DNA of 32,000 nucleotides from contig OY969938.1 in the NCBI GenBank assembly GCA_963704755.1, positions 4,140,001 to 4,172,000 of the forward strand, read 5' to 3'. The notes under the pieces were generated by a model. It was not told the origin of the DNA and made no database searches. It saw only the letters and a list, made by a program, of their open reading frames with translations. A program made the position numbers and the translations under genes. This document shows positions 10,263-18,299 of this stretch, piece after piece (the stretch's first letter is position 1; the number at the start of each line of letters is the position of its first letter). This DNA comes from an uncultured Chloroflexia bacterium (GTDB lineage Bacteria > Chloroflexota > Anaerolineae > Anaerolineales > Anaerolineaceae).

Positions 10263-11646
10263 ATGGATCAAAGTGTTGTCACTCTTTCTCAATGGCAATT
10301 TGCCATAACTTCGGTCTATCACTTTTTCTTCGTACCGCTTACGTTAGGTCTCTCGGTACTGGTAGCCATTATGGAGACCATCTACGTCAGCACCGGCAAC
10401 GAAGTCTACAAGCGGATGACCAAATTCTGGGGAAAGCTATTCATCATCAATTTTGCCATGGGGGTGGTGACGGGTATCGTTCAGGAATTCCAATTCGGGA
10501 TGAACTGGTCGGAATACTCCCGCTACGTGGGCGATATTTTCGGCGCACCGCTGGCTATCGAGGCTTTGCTGGCCTTCTTCCTTGAGTTCCACCTTCCTGG
10601 GATTATGGATCTTCGGTTGGGACCGCCTGGGGAAGCGGCTGCATTTGACAGCCATGTGGATGGTGGCCATTGGTTCGAATATCTCGGCCTTTTGGATCCT
10701 GGTGGCCAATTCGTTCATGCAATCCCCGGTCGGATATACCCAGGATGCCGGGCACCTGGTGATGACGAATTTCTCGGCCCTGCTGACCAACCCCTACGTG
10801 TGGGATGAATTTCCACACACCATTTTTTCTGGCCTTTCCACGGCCTCGTTCTTCATCCTGGGCATCAGCGCTTATCACCTGATCCGCAAGCACCATGAAA
10901 ACCTGTTCAAGCGCTCGTTCCAAATGGCCAGTGTAGCCGGTGTGTTGGCGGTGCTGCTGGTTATTCTGGTGGGGCATTCTCAAGCGCAGCGCATGGTGCA
11001 GGTTCAGCCAATGAAGATTGCCGCGGCCGAAGGATTGTTCGATACCGAGAACCCGGCCTCGTTCTCGCTGCTGACCATCGTCAACCAGAAGACGATGAGC
11101 GACATTATCTCGATCCGGATCCCGTACGCCTTGAGCTTGCTGGCTTATAACCGCCTGACCGGCGAGGTCAAAGGGATCAACGAGCTGCAAGCCGCGTACC
11201 AGGCTGAATATGGCCCGGGTAATTACGTGCCCAATATTACGGTGACGTACTGGTCCTTCCGCATCATGGTCGGCGCGGGCTTCTTGATGCTGCTGCTGGT
11301 GGCTTACGCCCTGTACCGGGTGATGCGCAACCAGTTGAAACCGAATATGAAATTCTTGAGTTTGTTCCCGCTCGCCATGGCGCTGCCTTACCTGGCGAAC
11401 ATATTCGGCTGGCTGTTGACCGAGATGGGCCGGCAACCCTGGGTGGTCTATGGCTTATTGCGTACCTCGGACGCGGTCTCGCCAAACCTGACGGCCGGGA
11501 TGGTGCTGACCAGCCTGATCGGGTTCACCCTGGTGTACGGCGCCTTGATGGCTGCCGATGTCTATCTGCTGGCCAAGAGCGCCCGCTCCGGGCCGGACCC
11601 TGAAACCGCTGCGGCGGAACTGATCGAAAAGAATGATTGGGAATAG
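10263..11646 (+). pseudogene. cydA: Cytochrome bd oxidase subunit I, reading frame broken by one extra nucleotide near 10587 (true pseudogene or sequence error)
   Basis: ORF 10263-10808 gives canonical CydA up to ...[14 protein letters not shown] and then becomes nonsense. The +1 frame from 10588 continues [50 protein letters not shown]... to the stop at 11646. Removing one T from gagTtcc restores ...FFLESTFLGLW..., the conserved CydA junction. The SD sequence GGGAGGGAGG lies before the ATG at 10263. Confidence 0.85.
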
Positions 11647-12722: not shown

Positions 12723-13090
12723 AGCTGTTAGCGGTTAGCTATTGGCAATTAGCCCGTAGGGTGGGTGGAGGGCTCGAAAATAACACAGACAAATCACCGG
12801 TTGGCGTCGTGATCCGGGCTTTGCCCGTAACCCACCGGGGGGTCGGTGCCGGCGACCGAGGTCGCGGCAACAAAAACGCGAAGCCCCACCTGCGTGGGGC
12901 TCAACCCGGCGTGGGCCACTTTTTGTGGCCCGGCTTTCGAAACCAAAGGATGTGTGTTGGGTTACGGGCTGAGCCTGGTAAAACAAAATGCCCTTCTGTG
13001 TGCCGGCGCCAGAATGGAGCCCGCAACCCAACCTACGAGCTAATTGCTAATCGCCAATAGCTAAAAGCTAAAAGCTAACTGCTAACAGCT
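12723..13090. mobile_element. ~370-bp non-coding MITE-like composite bounded by terminal inverted repeats and built from three short repeat modules (X, Y, Z)
   Basis: The left terminus agctgttagcggttagctattggcaattagc (12723-12753) is the imperfect reverse complement of gctaattgctaatcgccaatagcta...gctaactgctaacagct (13039-13090). Module X (about 12756-12836) recurs at about 15060-15138. Module Y (12851-12940) recurs at 14900-14985, with a fragment at 13105-13126. Module Z (12953-13036) belongs to the GTAGGTTGGGTT hairpin family seen at 5849-6030. No transposase is present. Confidence 0.6.
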
Positions 13091-13134
13091 CGCAGCCGGC
13101 TTTGGCCGCTTTTTGTGGCCCGGCTTATGAAAAC

Positions 13135-14100
13135 TTATGGGACAATAACGATCCGTTTTCCATGTTCCTTCAGGTCCCAAACTTTTTCAATGTCTTTCAG
13201 GGGATACTTTACAAGGTCTGCCCTTAATTGACCTTTTTTTATCATATCCCAGATAAGCTGGGCGCCTTCAGCCTGGGCCTGCGGTGGAGTCTGTGAAATC
13301 ATTCCGTAAATCTCAAGGCCTGAAGTCAACAGGCTTTGACCCGAGAGTTGTGCAGTCCATCCTGCCAATCCTCCGATCAGAACGAAACGGGTTCTTCTAC
13401 CTGGTACACCGATTGTAGTTGGAGTAAAGGTGTTGATGATCACTTCTGCCGGGTGGCCCCAGAGATAGTCGAGGATCACATCGTAGCCTTTTCCCGCCTC
13501 TTTTTTTATGGCTTTCGCTAATTCTTCATCCGGCTGGTTAAGGTTAATAAAAGCATCTGCGCCGAACTCCTTTAGCTTTTCTCCTGATTCCGGATTTCTT
13601 CCTGTTCCGATAATCCGTCCAGCGCCAAGATGCTTTGCAACCTGTACGGCAAGCATCCCTGAAACGCTTGTAGCGCCGTTAATCAATACCGTTTCACCCG
13701 ATTGGAGCTTTGCAACATATCTAAGCGGCCCGAGAGAACTCAATGCAGCGGATGGGATCACGGCTGCTTGCTCTGCGGTTATTCCTTCGGGAATTGGAGT
13801 GGCGGACGCCTTTGGTATCGCTACCCTTTCCGCCATAGAACCGTATGGGGGCTTTATCCCTCTAAAACTCACCAGGGTCCCATCTTCTAGAGAACCTATA
13901 CCACCGTAACCAACAACAGCCGGTAAAACTGGATAAAATTGTTTGCTGGCAAAGTGAATACCCGCTGAAAGCGCTTTGACAGCATAATCCAATATGACTG
14001 CCACTACCTTAACTGCAACATCACCGTCATTTAAAATGGGGTCAGGGAAATCTTCATACTTTGGGATATCTCCCAGGTTATTGATAACTGCTGCTTTCAT
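13135..14100 (-). CDS. Zinc-type/quinone oxidoreductase of the MDR superfamily (Qor-like)
   Basis: ORF 13135-14136. I prefer the ATG at 14100 (MKAAVINNLGD) because GAGGAGG lies 6 nt upstream. Nucleotide-binding motif: INGATSVSGMLAVQVAKHLGAGRIIGTGRN. GC content is visibly lower than in flanking host genes. Confidence 0.85.
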   Translation of the reverse strand: MKAAVINNLGDIPKYEDFPDPILNDGDVAVKVVAVILDYAVKALSAGIHFASKQFYPVLPAVVGYGGIGSLEDGTLVSFRGIKPPYGSMAERVAIPKASATPIPEGITAEQAAVIPSAALSSLGPLRYVAKLQSGETVLINGATSVSGMLAVQVAKHLGAGRIIGTGRNPESGEKLKEFGADAFINLNQPDEELAKAIKKEAGKGYDVILDYLWGHPAEVIINTFTPTTIGVPGRRTRFVLIGGLAGWTAQLSGQSLLTSGLEIYGMISQTPPQAQAEGAQLIWDMIKKGQLRADLVKYPLKDIEKVWDLKEHGKRIVIVP

Positions 14101-14172
14101 TTGAACCTCCTCGAGAAACTCGATAAATTCACTCAAATGTGTTAAAAATGAGACACCAACCTCCTGTATAAA

Positions 14173-14260: not shown

Positions 14261-14884
14261 GTGAAAGAATTGGAAGATGCCAATGCCAGGATTGAACGCC
14301 GCGATGCTGCAGAAAATCGTCAGCGAATATTGGATGCGGCGCAAAAACTTTTTGAGCAATACGGCGTTGAGCATACCAGTATGAATCAAATTGCGATCGA
14401 GGCACAAGTCGGTCCCGGGACCCTGTATCGCCGCTACAGGAATAAAAGCGAGTTATATTTTGATTTAAAAAAAGACAATATTGCTCAACTTTTCCATGAG
14501 ATCGAGAAATATTTGATAGACCACCAGGCCGATCCGCCTGATCGGCGATTGAAAGAAGTGCTCAGATTATTTATCTATTCTCGTGACAAAAATATCCAGT
14601 TATTGTCGGGATTTGAGGTCAGCACATTCGAAAAAAAACCGACTACCATCATGCAAACCCCGTTATACAATAAATTGTATGAAATTATCGTCAAATTATT
14701 CAGCGAGATGACTGCATGTGAACAGAACGAACCGAACAACGTGTTTAGGGCTGATATGTTGCTATATGCGTTATTAAAAGGTGACTCCTATCTATTTCAA
14801 AAGAATGTACGCGGTCATTCACCAGAATCGTTTTTGGAACAGCTTTGCCTGACATTTTTTCCGGTGTGCGTCGATACAGATTAG
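14261..14884 (+). CDS. TetR/AcrR-family transcriptional regulator
   Basis: GTG start. The N-terminal HTH reads RQRILDAAQKLFEQYGVEHTSMNQIAIEAQVGPGTLYRRYRNKSELYFDL. The gene is divergent from the oxidoreductase. Confidence 0.85.
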   Translation: MKELEDANARIERRDAAENRQRILDAAQKLFEQYGVEHTSMNQIAIEAQVGPGTLYRRYRNKSELYFDLKKDNIAQLFHEIEKYLIDHQADPPDRRLKEVLRLFIYSRDKNIQLLSGFEVSTFEKKPTTIMQTPLYNKLYEIIVKLFSEMTACEQNEPNNVFRADMLLYALLKGDSYLFQKNVRGHSPESFLEQLCLTFFPVCVDTD

Positions 14885-14899
14885 CAGTTAGCCGGCGTT

Positions 14900-14985
14900 G
14901 GCGACCGAGGTCGCAGCAACAAGTACTCGAAGCCCCACCTGCGTGGGTCTCAACCCGGCAGGGGGAGCTTTTTGTGGCCAAGCTT
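14900..14985. repeat. Module Y repeat, second copy, direct orientation relative to 12851-12940
   Basis: ggcgaccgaggtcgcAgcaacaa..cgaagccccacctgcgtgggTctcaacccggc...ctttttgtggcc aligns with 12851-12940. It contains two small hairpins (gcgacc/ggtcgc and ccccac/gtgggg). Confidence 0.75.
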
Positions 14986-15059
14986 CTTATAATTCACCAA
15001 ATTTCTCAATGAGCCCTCCACATATATTACATGTACAAAGCTAATTGCTAACATCTCGA

Positions 15060-15138
15060 AGCGTGGATGCAGGGCTCGAAAATAGCGCCGGCATATCACA
15101 AGTTGGAATTACCATCTGGATCTTGGCCGTAACCCACC
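15060..15138. repeat. Module X repeat, second copy (first copy about 12756-12836)
   Basis: Shared blocks gggctcgaaaata, atcac..gttgg and gccgtaacccacc occur in the same order. It is preceded by gctaattgctaac (15040-), which resembles the MITE terminus at 13039. Confidence 0.65.
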
Positions 15139-15276
15139 ATCTGGCGGGTAATCACCCGCATCCCGGTCTTCTTCGATCAGAAAGTAGTGGCGTTTCTAAT
15201 GGAGCGTTGAAAAGCAAGCTCAGTCGGGAGACCATCCCGAACGACAAGCGAGGAGACCACACAAATCAATTTTGAT

Positions 15277-16143
15277 TCATATCGATTTACATAGCTCAGA
15301 ATTAGTTTTTGCTAACCTATTTATCGCCATCAGATAGGTCTCATGTATTAGGTTTGGTTTATCTTTTTTTAAATTTCCGAGAGTAATATAATTATTTCCT
15401 GTAGTCATTTCAAGAGTTCCATCTGAGAGGATTTGCAGAAAATCAAAATATCGATCCTTCAATGACACCATTTTAAATTTTCTATTTGGAGCAGAAAAAA
15501 ATGATCTAATATTATAAGTAGATGAATAGAACAAAGAATCGCTTATTTCAAACAATTCTTTATTGTTTTTCGCCGCAACACCATGATCGCTACGAAATTG
15601 ATAGATTTTCCATTCTGATACCCCAGCATTAATAAGATAAGTTGCAATATTTTTCAAATCACCGTGATTGATTTTAGACACCACCGTAGTAGCTTTCAAA
15701 ATAATACCAGAATCCCGTAAGACCGAAAAAATATTATCCACTTTCTTAAAATGATCCTTTGGCCTTGACATTTGCATATTGATTTCTTCAGTTGAACCAT
15801 CCAAAGGGAGCGAAAGTCTATCTACCTTTGAACTTAATAAAAAAGCCAACCATTCTTTATCGATTAATGAACCATTGGTCATTACTGTTGTAAAAAGTTT
15901 GCTTTTAACTGAATATAAGATCGCTTCAGGAATCCAAGGAACAAGCAAAGGCTCCCCCGTAAATGTGATTCGATTAGCGCCTAATAAAATAAGTTTGTCG
16001 ATTATTTGTTTTGCTTCCTCAAAGGACGTAATATTGTCATCAGTTGAGTAACGATAACAATATTTGCATGCATAGTTGCATTTGCTTGTGACGTACCAAC
16101 AGACGTGGTTAGCGTGTATAGCAGAGGGTAATTGTTCAATCAT
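15277..16143 (-). CDS. Radical SAM enzyme, viperin-like (possible prokaryotic viperin, pVip)
   Basis: 288 aa with about 30-35% GC. CX3CX2C motif in VCWYVTSKCNYACKYCY. By eye it aligns along its length with human viperin as I remember it: FTRQCNYKCGFCFH / EEAK / INFSGGEPF vs ITFTGEPLL / SNGSLI vs TNGSLI / FKINSVIN vs LKATTVVSKIN / RWKVFQ vs EWKIYQ / MKDSYLILDEY vs LKDRYFDFLQI. There are no extra Cys clusters, so no SPASM domain. Confidence 0.8.
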   Translation of the reverse strand: MIEQLPSAIHANHVCWYVTSKCNYACKYCYRYSTDDNITSFEEAKQIIDKLILLGANRITFTGEPLLVPWIPEAILYSVKSKLFTTVMTNGSLIDKEWLAFLLSSKVDRLSLPLDGSTEEINMQMSRPKDHFKKVDNIFSVLRDSGIILKATTVVSKINHGDLKNIATYLINAGVSEWKIYQFRSDHGVAAKNNKELFEISDSLFYSSTYNIRSFFSAPNRKFKMVSLKDRYFDFLQILSDGTLEMTTGNNYITLGNLKKDKPNLIHETYLMAINRLAKTNSELCKSI

Positions 16144-16187
16144 CTTTCATTTCCAAATTTCAGACATTCGCCGATCTTAAAATAAAT

Positions 16188-17579
16188 TTATGGTAAAATA
16201 GGGAATAATATATGATTGGTTATAATTGTAAAAATAGCGCTTGTCAATGCAATAAATATACTAATAAAACTTAAAAGTAGGAGCAACAAATCTATTGTGC
16301 GTTGGTTGTTGCTAATTTTTCTTTGTGCTACCAAAGTAATTTTCTCATCGAGCAAACGCATCTTTTTATAGATGGTTTCTGCTCTATCAGGCAAATTCAT
16401 TTCCTTAGAGAGGTTATCTAAAAATTCCAATGAGAATCCATGAATAATGAAAGCAGTAATATCTCCTGTTTTCTCTAACTCTAGTATAAGGTTTTTCAAT
16501 TCAATAGCGACTGTAATGTCATCATTAAAGGTAGTCGAGGAATATTCTGATACAAAGCGTTCAATAATTGAGTTTAGTGTATGAGTGAATATTAATTGCG
16601 CATTTAATAGTTCGCAAATTATTTTTATGTTATTAACCAATATTGTCAACTCATTTATACGCCAGTAATCGGGTAGCACAATTAGGGCTGCATTGTTGTC
16701 ACAAATAAATAACTCATCGTCTTTATAAGACAACGAGTTACATATCACGCGATCAGAATAATTCTTGTTATACTCTCCAAACCATTTCGCCGAGTTTAAT
16801 ATACCTAATAATTCTTTTTTGGAGCCATCAGTTAGGTCACCACTTTCAAAACAATCCTCAACTTTGCTTCCTTCGAAATCGCTAGGGTTTACGACTAAAA
16901 AGCGGAAAGGCCTTCCATGTGGAATTATTGAATCGCGTGCATTAAGATCACAGGTAGTTAATTTGATACGTTTAAGAAAATAATTGGATTTATTTATGGT
17001 TACAAAGAACTCTGAAATATCAAAAATAAGCTTTCGAAAAAAGCTATCTAAGTATTGTTGAAGTTTTTGCATTATCAAAATGAATTCATTTGCTTCAAAA
17101 ACATTATGGCTATTTTCAGGATCGCGAAAGCTGAAACTAATTGACATAACACCATTACGAAATAAATTTAGACCTATGTTTTCATACTGAAATAGAGGCT
17201 TGCTTGTATCAGGGACGTCAAGACTGATGGTCGATGCATTAATCGTTAATCCTTTATCATAATCGAATCCATTTATTCCTTCTTTCAATTCATACAATGT
17301 AGGCATATATTGGTCGTAAAAAACAGGTGAAAAAATGTTCTTTCCACCGTTTTGAATAACCTTTTCTTTTGTTTTTTGAAGCAAATCTCCACCGGAATTA
17401 GACGTTTTTGGTATAAATGATCCGATCTTTATGCTGTTTCTCGAAAGGCTCCCCCATACATCAAAAAACATTCTGTTGTTAGATCTCATTGATCTAAATT
17501 TGTCCAATGAAGAATCTTTAACGAAGATACCGAAATCAAATGCATACATGAACGTAATGTTGAATTTTGAATATTTCAT
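16188..17579 (-). CDS. 463-aa orphan protein: large soluble N-terminal region, helical stalk, C-terminal hydrophobic anchor
   Basis: Long uninterrupted ORF in about 30% GC DNA, where random stops are frequent. GGGGTGG lies 4-5 nt before the ATG. It ends 44 bp upstream of the radical SAM gene on the same strand. The C-terminus IDLLLLLLSFISIFIALTSAIFTIITNHILFPILP is one long or two short TM segments. I recognise no catalytic motif. Confidence 0.75.
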   Translation of the reverse strand: MKYSKFNITFMYAFDFGIFVKDSSLDKFRSMRSNNRMFFDVWGSLSRNSIKIGSFIPKTSNSGGDLLQKTKEKVIQNGGKNIFSPVFYDQYMPTLYELKEGINGFDYDKGLTINASTISLDVPDTSKPLFQYENIGLNLFRNGVMSISFSFRDPENSHNVFEANEFILIMQKLQQYLDSFFRKLIFDISEFFVTINKSNYFLKRIKLTTCDLNARDSIIPHGRPFRFLVVNPSDFEGSKVEDCFESGDLTDGSKKELLGILNSAKWFGEYNKNYSDRVICNSLSYKDDELFICDNNAALIVLPDYWRINELTILVNNIKIICELLNAQLIFTHTLNSIIERFVSEYSSTTFNDDITVAIELKNLILELEKTGDITAFIIHGFSLEFLDNLSKEMNLPDRAETIYKKMRLLDEKITLVAQRKISNNQRTIDLLLLLLSFISIFIALTSAIFTIITNHILFPILP

Positions 17580-17610
17580 ATTCCACCCCTATTCAAAACT
17601 TGATAAAAAG

Positions 17611-17616
17611 ATTATA
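17611..17616 (-). promoter_or_regulatory. Candidate -10 box for the orphan/radical-SAM operon
   Basis: The complement reads ttgTATAAT, about 32 nt upstream of the ATG at 17579, within a 270-bp AT-rich leader. The -35 is weak (ttctaa). Confidence 0.3.
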
Positions 17617-17864
17617 CAATAAATTTTTGAGTTAGAATTCTTGGAAATTACTTTGAATAAGATTTGGTTGATCCAAATCCAATAGAAGCATATTGTATTA
17701 GATTTTAATGACCCTTCGAAGCTGTCTTTGTTATAGCAAAAATTGGTTTAATGATAAAAAGATTTATCAATGGAAAACATTTGATCTCCTGTCAAGCGGC
17801 TCGCTTTACCTTTTGAGGGCGAAGATTTAGAATAGTTTATCCTTTTTAATCAGTGGAGTTGACT

Positions 17865-18299
17865 ATGGGTAAGGGTTTCGAAAAACACATCATCGAAGCG
17901 GAGAACGCGCCGCAGGCTATTGGACCCTATTCGGTGGGGGTGATGGCCAGGCACTTCTTGTTTACGGCCGGCCAACTTGGCATCGATCCGGCCAGCGGGG
18001 CGATCGTCGAAGGTGGCATCGAGGCGGAAACCCGCCAGGCATTTACCAACCTGAAGGCCGTCCTGGAAGCAGCCGGCACTTCCCTGGCGAATGTGGTCAA
18101 GACGACCGTTTTCTTGCAGGATATCAATGAGTTTGGCAAGATGAACGAGGTCTACGCCGAGTTCATCGAAGGCGATTACCCGGCTCGTTCCGCTTTTCAA
18201 GTAGCGGCGCTGCCTAAGGGTGGCCGGGTCGAGATCGAAGCGGTCGCCCTGGTCCCTTCAACGGACCACCATCACCATCATCATCACGACCACGATTAG
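17865..18299 (+). CDS. ridA: RidA/YjgF/UK114-family reactive-intermediate deaminase with a C-terminal poly-His tail
   Basis: ORF 17853-18299. I prefer the ATG at 17865, with GGAG 8 nt upstream. PYSVGVMARHFLFTAGQLGIDPASG...TTVFLQDINEFGKMNEVYAEF...PARSAFQVAALPKGGRVEIEAVA is classic RidA. The tail is STDHHHHHHHDHD. Confidence 0.85.
   Translation: MGKGFEKHIIEAENAPQAIGPYSVGVMARHFLFTAGQLGIDPASGAIVEGGIEAETRQAFTNLKAVLEAAGTSLANVVKTTVFLQDINEFGKMNEVYAEFIEGDYPARSAFQVAALPKGGRVEIEAVALVPSTDHHHHHHHDHD

Follow-up and report, generated by a model that had tools for sequence, protein, structure and literature searches.

A viperin-related radical SAM enzyme with an altered pocket and a membrane-protein partner in a rare two-gene cassette of an uncultured Chloroflexia bacterium

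Our analysis concerned a gene for an enzyme of the radical S-adenosylmethionine (SAM) type and its upstream neighbour in a 32,000-nucleotide (nt) stretch of an uncultured Chloroflexia bacterium (contig OY969938.1, positions 4,140,001 to 4,172,000), which is called the window here. Few immune enzymes are common to bacteria and humans; viperins are among them and make natural antiviral chain terminators. We found that viperin is the nearest characterised family of the enzyme by profile, by PDB sequence search and by predicted fold, and that the enzyme combines the scaffold of viperin with a pocket and a partner that are both new, the partner being a membrane protein of 463 amino acids (aa). Judged by sequence, the enzyme is not itself a member of the family of viperins and prokaryotic viperins (pVips), and the two genes form a very rare, horizontally acquired cassette of about 2.6 kb. 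Our reading, which is tentative and which we would put slightly below an even chance, is that this is a radical enzyme which acts on a phosphorylated nucleoside-type substrate in an altered pocket and works with its membrane partner, possibly in phage defence. The parts of the cassette are as follows.

15250..17850, no strand assigned: two-gene cassette of foreign composition with sharp edges, at 32.4% GC as compared with 58.3% elsewhere in the window
15277..16143, minus strand: radical SAM gene, ATG start, 288 aa, with a single [4Fe-4S]/SAM core and a viperin-like fold
16144..16187, minus strand: spacer of 44 nt between the partner and enzyme genes, in which no terminator-like site was found on scanning
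16188..17579, minus strand: partner gene, 463 aa, directly upstream of the enzyme gene
16194..16304, minus strand: hydrophobic C-terminal tail of the partner (residues 426-462), its only stretch above 1.6 on the Kyte-Doolittle scale, with R/K residues before it
17580..17852, minus strand: AT-rich leader upstream of the partner, 273 nt, about 29% GC, non-coding, presumed promoter region

The enzyme and its distance from the viperins

The enzyme belongs to a clade of four protein clusters, namely the window protein, P0005, P0006 and P0002 (locus L001). Its open reading frame (ORF) was confirmed, and so was its compact make-up of three cluster cysteines and two others, as had been described from the letters alone; the five cysteines are residues 15, 22, 26, 29 and 285. 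PF04055 was its only Pfam match above the cutoff (E=1.6e-21), and Fer4_12 was sub-threshold (17.8 vs 22 bits). The motifs of the enzyme are listed below.

16093..16101, minus strand: C15-W16-Y17, which replaces viperin N77-aromatic-H79 on strand beta1 (from alignment columns)
16057..16080, minus strand: CX3CX2C cluster motif C22-N-Y-A-C26-K-Y-C29 (from the translation and alignments)
Residues 42-45: EEAK (read from the translation)
15943..15963, minus strand: FTGEPLL, residues 61-67, the SAM-binding GGE motif minus its first Gly (from the translation and alignment)
Residues 89-94: TNGSLI (read from the translation)
15679..15696, minus strand: K150-A-T152-T-V-V, counterpart of viperin K220-I-N222-S-V with Asn changed to Thr/Ser (from the column table)
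15595..15615, minus strand: E177-W-K179-I-Y-Q-F, residues 177-183, counterpart of viperin RWKVFQ with Arg245 changed to Glu (from the column table)
15439..15459, minus strand: K229-D-R-Y-F-D-F235, in which KDRY is residues 229-232 and F235 stands at the viperin Y302 position (from MAFFT and hhalign)

C22, C26 and C29 were invariant in the 68-sequence tree alignment and in a 66-sequence alignment, and C22 was conserved only at the level of at least 90% in a broader alignment of 108 sequences. Outside the cluster motif, only C15 is conserved in the clade; C285, the sole Cys after residue 29, is not. With no more than five cysteines, an auxiliary Fe-S cluster is excluded. The original prediction had argued against a maturase of ribosomally synthesised and post-translationally modified peptides (RiPPs) of the SPASM type, and our result agrees with it, since there is a single cluster without SPASM or twitch cysteines.

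The order of motifs is cluster motif, EEAK, FTGEPLL, TNGSLI, EWKIYQF and KDRY. A viperin-like motif order had been proposed earlier, and this stood for the cluster motif, EEAK, TNGSLI and WKIYQ but not for the registers of the KINSV-like and KD.Y motifs. The counterpart of viperin KINSV is K150-A-T-T-V, which has lost the Asn, and not the SKINH string at 156-160. KDRY as spelled is shifted by three residues from viperin KDSY, because both MAFFT and hhalign set Y302 opposite F235, anchored on the invariant hairpin Gly242. The reading TGEP in place of GGEP, which had been taken as the main anomaly, is real. FTGEPLL was found in all four clade members, and GG(E/D) in all 62 other aligned relatives, viperins and outgroups; being common to the whole clade, the missing Gly must be a conserved deletion and no sequencing error. 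The AlphaFold2 (AF2) model is confident at this motif (predicted local distance difference test score, pLDDT, 96-98). However, it is only one of about nine clade-specific departures.

No non-viperin family gave a better profile match than viperin. The top match of the enzyme in NCBIfam was the pVip model NF038283 (E=1.1e-26), and the PADLOC pVip models gave 99-102 bits (E=6.8e-30). In a single-sequence search of the PDB, only viperins came at the top. With the clade profile, viperins matched at E=2e-29 to 5e-23 and the next family, SkfB, at 7e-12, and hhalign of the clade against five pVips gave a probability of 99.9% (E=2.5e-33). The AF2 model of the enzyme (pLDDT 92.7; predicted template modelling score, pTM, 0.90) was aligned by Foldseek to the viperins 6Q2P, 9DFN and 5VSL, bound to cytidine triphosphate (CTP), with TMq of 0.75-0.77, TMt of 0.74-0.80 and a root-mean-square deviation (rmsd) of 2.4-2.9 Å. 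On these comparisons the resemblance to viperin is far beyond chance. Like viperins and pVips (NF038283 and TIGR04278; 5VSL, 6Q2P, 7N7H, 7N7I, 9DFN), which are about 280 aa long, the enzyme is compact and has a single CX3CX2C cluster, a predicted partial-barrel fold with a C-terminal beta-hairpin region, the motifs EEAK, (S/T)NGSLI, K-x-x-(S/T)-V and W-K-x-(F/Y)-Q, and basic residues equivalent to K120, R194, K220 and K247.

The twitch/SPASM enzymes (SkfB, SuiB, anSME, MftC, TIGR04053) and MoaA share with the enzyme the radical SAM core and the beta-hairpin that opens the C-terminal domain, which explains the secondary profile and fold matches to them. However, the window enzyme has no auxiliary-cluster Cys in its C-terminal domain, is about 100 aa shorter, and matches them at 7e-12 or worse as compared with 2e-29 for viperins. 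Membership among the SPASM/twitch maturases was rejected for lack of these cysteines. An identity with MoaA was also rejected, as TIGR02666 gave 50.5 bits vs a cutoff of 284 and the C-terminal second-cluster cysteines are missing.

The gene had been read as viperin-like, and our analysis did not uphold membership in the pVip family. NF038283 gave 93.6 bits, about half of the curated cutoff of 180, with a match ending at model position 207 of 281, and TIGR04278 gave 49.4 bits vs a cutoff of 450. On the same NF038283 model, three PGAP-annotated plasmid pVips scored 270-302 bits over the whole length, relatives from the wider family described below 86-171 bits, and the clade members P0005 and P0006 107-111 bits. 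A local hidden Markov model (HMM) built from five pVips ranked the proteins in the same way: 437-503 bits for pVips, 188-202 for eukaryotic viperin fragments, 75-170 for the wider family, 99 for the window enzyme and about 55 for SPASM outgroups. We also placed the enzyme phylogenetically, in a neighbour-joining tree of 68 sequences with 100 bootstraps, whose references were five pVips, two partial eukaryotic viperins and two outgroups. The viperins were monophyletic in 95 of the 100 bootstraps and the window clade in 89, and in none did the window clade group with the viperins, so that the enzyme falls outside the viperin clade. In an earlier run of the tree, which had NaN distances, the sister of the window clade was drawn from the wider family in 76 of 100 bootstraps. 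The method is simple and the reference set is small, and the tree is therefore supporting rather than decisive.

The residues of the pocket are given in the numbering of mouse viperin, with the offset fixed by HMMER alignment to 5VSL, in which chain residue 40 is Cys84. We take K120, R194, K220, R245 and K247 to be triphosphate-binding in the mouse viperin-CTP structure (PDB 6Q2P), and N77, H79 and Y302 presumably line the substrate pocket there; what we measured at these positions is conservation. The enzyme keeps K120 (as R58, with K in the rest of the clade), E127, the Asn-Gly of TNG, D182, R194 (R127), H201 (H131), K220 (K150), W246, K247 (K179) and Q250.

Other positions have changed. N77, which is N in 7/7 reference viperins, is C15 in the enzyme and C in 4/4 clade members; H79 (H in 6/7) is Y17 and Y in 4/4. 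The enzyme has C-W-Y seven residues before the first cluster Cys, whereas viperins have N-aromatic-H, and zero indels separate this motif from the cluster cysteines. N222, an Asn that 7/7 viperins and 38/53 wider-family proteins have, is T152, with T or S in 4/4 clade members, and K220 is kept. R245, for which 7/7 viperins have R and 38/53 wider-family proteins R/K, is E177, with E in 4/4 clade members, and the following W and K are kept. Y302, invariant in the reference viperins in the columns covered, is F235, on which MAFFT and hhalign agree. G125, invariant in all seven reference viperins, is the Gly deleted from the GGE motif. The viperin-invariant E-x-N, which precedes the K-D-S-Y strand (E215 and N217 of the Nostoc pVip), aligns with V226 and L228 and thus reads V-x-L. 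The C-terminal tail RGG-x-Y-x-W, present in 4/5 PGAP/GenBank pVips, is absent from all clade members, which end soon after the last helix. The C-terminal hairpin of the enzyme is longer (DGTLEMTTGNNYITLGN) and aligns poorly with the pVip beta8 loop. Across the clade, in which the identity between members is only about 40%, the replacing residues are invariant or nearly so, which points to a different pocket under selection and argues against drift or decay.

In viperins, nucleobase binding has been ascribed to an Asn of the beta8 loop (prokaryotes) or to Cys314/Lys319 (Shomar et al., bioRxiv 10.1101/2023.09.13.557418), and a docking description puts S124, K220, N222 and K247 in the viperin pocket (PMC11970327).

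The membrane partner, the rare clade and the wider family

The partner gene was found directly upstream of the enzyme gene in three of the four clade lineages. Neither this conserved partner nor the foreign, low-GC nature of the pair had been remarked on earlier. Locus L002 has a partner homologue of identical length (463 aa; 30% identity, E about 1e-55) directly upstream of P0005, and this type of locus recurs in four sequencing runs. Locus L001 has a partial homologue (33% identity, E=9e-46), also directly upstream of the enzyme gene, which was found only by direct comparison. Enzyme and partner are co-inherited, and we infer functional coupling at the membrane. The sole hydrophobic stretch of the partner is its C-terminal 37 residues, and the protein is therefore predicted to be mostly cytoplasmic and tail-anchored; the tail is conserved in L001 and L002. 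The other conserved blocks are GGKNIFS, LFR-G-x-x-SI-x-FSF, YK-x-x-E-x-F-x-CD-x5-IVLP-x-YW, ELLN-x-QL, EK-x-GD and HGF. The pairing differs from that of viperins, as this enzyme has the tail-anchored protein instead of a nucleotide kinase or besides one.

Searches with the partner against Pfam, NCBIfam, PADLOC and PHROGs gave no match, or none consistent across the three homologues, and its profile had no match in the PDB at E<=10. In a word-indexed search of 5.8 billion proteins, the only homologue was P0153, the cluster of the L002-type locus. We considered the partner as a CorA-like membrane effector, as one of the three homologues had a PADLOC match (E=0.007 over 70 residues). The protein has one hydrophobic stretch instead of two helices and no GMN motif, and Foldseek gave CorA at E>1 with an unreliable model. 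The lead was rejected because that model is unusable and nothing was below E=0.3 in the Foldseek search with it.

All four independent assemblies of the L002-type locus (L002, L022, L023 and L024) break 240-330 nt upstream of the partner gene, which suggests a repeat or mobile-element junction there. At L002 2840-5540 (also in L022), convergent to the pair, lie a gene for a 277-aa protein ending in C-x4-C-x2-C-x5-C and two nucleotide genes, one for a thymidylate kinase and one for a nucleoside 2-deoxyribosyltransferase fused to a methyltransferase. This cluster looks like a nucleotide- or DNA-modification set, which may or may not work with the pair. An AAA_18 kinase-like gene is near the enzyme gene in L003/L004.

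The foreign composition of the cassette is not confined to the window, as the L001 pair has 49% GC vs 64% in the neighbouring gene. The cassette has therefore entered at least two high-GC hosts from elsewhere. In the leader and spacer of the window, promoter-like matches were no more frequent than in shuffled sequence, and no promoter or terminator site was assigned. Only 10 proteins were found at E<1e-30 in an exhaustive HMMER search of 1.84 billion cluster representatives, and alignments of enzyme and partner against 185,579 genomes, 241 M metagenome records and 2.9 M viral contigs gave nothing further.

Around the clade there is a large family of proteins of 250-310 aa (P0007-P0152), which we term VCW after its signature: V-C-W-x-I-T before the cluster, K-I-N-T-V-V and R-W-K-x-F-Q-F. 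An example is WP_106894703.1 on the E. coli plasmid NZ_CP027324.1. NCBI/PGAP names the members just "radical SAM protein". All 66 members tested match the pVip model, the best with only 171 bits. On the sequence comparisons, the window clade is a tiny divergent clade inside this larger, uncharacterised sister family of the viperins. Like the window enzyme, VCW-family members have a Cys at the viperin N77 position, are compact and align with it end to end. Unlike the window clade, they mostly keep GGEP, K-I-N, R-W-K and a Tyr equivalent to Y302; only the window clade lacks the Gly, has T152, E177 and F235 and comes with the 463-aa partner. The partners of VCW-family genes are instead a deoxynucleoside kinase with NudI, a dCMP kinase with hpt, or N-terminally anchored membrane proteins. 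No description of the VCW family or of the enzyme-partner pairing was found in the literature searched.

Several members are placed among nucleotide genes. On two E. coli conjugative plasmids, a VCW-family gene heads an operon beside toxin-antitoxin genes.

L012 4968-6978 (NZ_CP027324.1, 116684-118694) and L018 3968-5965 (NZ_CP045714.1): three-gene operon of radical SAM gene, deoxynucleoside kinase and NudI

The radical SAM protein of this operon scores 86 bits on the pVip model, under the cutoff. The operon has the look of a viperin-like nucleotide system that has escaped study, and its host is a tractable one. On a Parabacteroides plasmid, the VCW-family gene lies between a (d)CMP kinase gene and genes for a dehydrogenase and hypoxanthine phosphoribosyltransferase (hpt), and the locus adjoins GDP-sugar genes. 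True pVips on cyanobacterial plasmids adjoin deoxynucleoside/thymidylate kinases, as expected. The VCW family also includes fusions to PfkB kinase, cytidylyltransferase-like, SIR2_2 and type I restriction HindI-like (T1RH-like) domains. The last two are modules typical of defence proteins; P0123 (756 aa) and P0090 (559 aa) join the radical SAM domain with SIR2_2 and with a type I restriction HindI-like C-terminal domain.

Directly upstream of VCW-family genes in two other loci (L007 878-1762, 294 aa; L010 362-1522, 386 aa), we found genes for membrane proteins with an N-terminal helix. The two proteins share a WWLAPG-x-H...E segment that resembles a Nudix box, without Pfam support. We compared both with the 463-aa partner as possible remote homologues of it; they were unrelated to it and were rejected as such.

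Proposed function and competing explanations

The enzyme has what is needed to bind SAM and a [4Fe-4S] cluster, and its viperin-like fold is predicted with confidence. We propose that it would cleave SAM to the 5'-deoxyadenosyl radical and take a hydrogen from a phosphorylated small molecule, which most likely is a nucleotide or resembles one. The substrate type is suggested by two lines of evidence: four of the five basic residues that would hold phosphate in viperins are kept (K/R58, R127, K150 and K179), and links or fusions to nucleotide enzymes recur in the wider family. The earlier description of the protein as nucleotide-modifying remains plausible on this basis. The product is probably no canonical 3'-deoxy-3',4'-didehydro-nucleoside triphosphate (ddhNTP) made in the manner of viperin, because the pocket is remodelled, especially by the change of R245 to E and the Cys at the N77 position. 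The partner may tether or regulate the enzyme, or act on its product at the membrane. As to biological role, a conflict-related (anti-phage) one is the most likely, in view of the foreign composition, the extreme patchiness and the family associations. The closest precedent in concept is OpnA of the Ophion system, a radical SAM protein that is pVip-related yet phylogenetically distinct and acts against jumbo phages with PHP and phosphoribosyltransferase (PRTase) partners (bioRxiv 10.1101/2025.09.30.679545). OpnA is likened here by its description only, and unlike in the OpnA-OpnB-OpnC system, no PHP or PRTase gene is near the window enzyme.

Several points weigh against this reading. The roles of the viperin residues are assumed ones, ours being an analysis of conservation. 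Arg245 to Glu is a charge reversal at a presumed phosphate-binding position, and it could mean that the substrate is no triphosphate at all. Neither in the clade nor in the wider family has any member a substrate, product or phenotype on record. The 32-kb window lacks any recognisable defence gene, and the pair has no nucleotide kinase next to it. The tree, as noted, is a simple one with few references. In the P0006 lineage (L003/L004) the enzyme occurs with no partner gene, of which no remnant was seen on inspection, and the partner is therefore not obligatory. Finally, the AF2 model of the partner, made from a two-sequence alignment, was unusable (pLDDT 39.7); the fold of the partner is therefore not modelled, and its role is a guess.

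A bolder form of the same proposal, which we consider unlikely, is that of a new two-component conflict system, in which a viperin-sister enzyme would carry out a different radical chemistry on a nucleotide, the tail-anchored partner would be a sensor or effector, and the VCW family would be a second branch of viperin-type immunity with other antiviral nucleotides. As an example of such chemistry, hydrogen abstraction could be followed by return of a hydrogen from the conserved Cys15, at the position of viperin Asn77, which would give an epimerised or reduced nucleotide and not a dehydrated one.

By another account, likewise improbable, the enzyme would tailor a natural product of the nucleotide-sugar or nucleoside kind, or the cell envelope, with chemistry of the BlsE/DesII type, a partner in export or assembly and no immune function. 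BlsE (cytosylglucuronate decarboxylase) and DesII are indeed among the sequence and fold matches, the wider family has the PfkB sugar/nucleoside kinase and cytidylyltransferase-like fusions, the Parabacteroides locus adjoins GDP-sugar genes, and the window itself has polysaccharide genes and no defence genes nearby. However, BlsE and DesII are far weaker matches than viperins (E=1e-10 vs 2e-29; TM about 0.6, rmsd 6-8 Å), the pair is a foreign cassette separated from the polysaccharide genes by regulatory genes of normal GC, and no glycosyltransferase or transporter travels with it in L001 or L002.

The enzyme could also modify a peptide or protein, possibly the partner itself, as RiPP or effector-maturing radical SAM enzymes do, and this we regard as quite unlikely. 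The top Foldseek E-value was that of the RiPP maturase SkfB, SuiB was also high, and many SPASM-family models were secondary matches; the partner is always immediately upstream in the three lineages that have it, and there is a reported precedent, the HXS system, of a defence effector matured by a radical SAM enzyme (PMC13128918). But SkfB and SuiB match as fragments of much larger proteins (TMt about 0.5, as compared with 0.74-0.80 for viperins), the five cysteines leave none for an auxiliary cluster and only C15 is conserved outside the cluster motif. Moreover, no peptide-recognition domain was found by Pfam, no small ORF is common to the window, L001, L002 and L003 loci, and the P0006 lineage does without the partner.

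It is decidedly unlikely, in our view, that the enzyme is a divergent pVip which dehydrates CTP, UTP or GTP to chain-terminating ddhNTPs and whose substitutions are neutral drift. Such a reading would fit with viperin as the best match by every method, with the four phosphate-binding basic residues and the W-K-x-x-Q motif that are kept, and with a weak similarity (27-29%) of the L002 thymidylate kinase to the kinases beside true pVips. It does not fit with a score so far below the NF038283 cutoff and the range of true pVips, with viperins that are monophyletic in 95 of 100 bootstraps and group with the enzyme in none, or with the loss of N77, N222, R245, Y302 and E-x-N (7/7 viperins), H79 (6/7) and the RGG-x-Y-x-W tail, and the invariance of the substitutions in the clade points to a different pocket that has been selected for. 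A mobile-element remnant that is in decay or has no function, for which the very foreign composition, the interspersed repeats beside the cassette and the lack of an assigned promoter might speak, is highly improbable, as both ORFs are intact, all the catalytic motifs, like many further residues, are invariant in four lineages at only about 40% identity, and the partner is conserved at full length between the window and L002.

If the proposed radical enzyme with an altered pocket is what the cassette encodes, then a sister lineage of the viperins, having kept the scaffold and the phosphate grip and rebuilt the pocket, may make a different modified nucleotide, possibly a new antiviral or signalling molecule. 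Lenient defence models may well mislabel such genes as pVip; the PADLOC pVip model gives 102 bits here, a score taken without regard to a PADLOC threshold. The present enzyme marks a point at which the label ceases to be warranted. The window clade is extremely rare, with four protein clusters known, and its general importance is therefore uncertain. The conserved membrane partner is one lead. The sister family on E. coli plasmids, with its radical SAM protein, deoxynucleoside kinase and NudI, is the more tractable one, and a second branch of viperin-like chemistry is an attractive idea that could be tested most easily with these operons.

Surroundings of the cassette in the window

On the flanks of the cassette, the window has a TetR regulator gene, genes for an alcohol dehydrogenase and for RidA, genes for two-component systems and for cytochrome bd, and polysaccharide genes. 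Scans of the window found no Rfam family and no tRNA. Two genes lie near the 3' end of the enzyme gene.

13135-14136, minus strand: zinc-type alcohol dehydrogenase, 47% GC
14261-14884, plus strand: TetR regulator, 41.5% GC

These two genes are flanked by the two copies of a non-coding interspersed repeat (12723-13132 and 14893-15138), the second of which lies between the TetR gene and the 3' end of the enzyme gene. The blocks of the two copies are 71-84% identical and stand in permuted order. Both have GC-rich hairpins followed by T-runs, and the first is bounded by 31-nt inverted arms of AGCTAAA-like heptamers. The repeats have no Rfam match, and the long "ORFs" at them are probably just repeat sequence. 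The GC content of the alcohol dehydrogenase and TetR genes is between that of the cassette and that of the backbone, and the repeats may bracket an insertion here that is separate and older.

The gene for cytochrome bd subunit I is split over two frames that overlap, with the ORF at 10263-10808 covering positions 1-108 of the Pfam profile and the ORF at 10582-11646 covering positions 101-418. This coverage indicates a frameshift near 10590, which would be either a sequencing error or a mark of a pseudogene. Beside the cassette, at 17853-18299, is a gene for a RidA/L-PSP protein with a natural His-rich C-terminal tail, HHHHHHHDHD.

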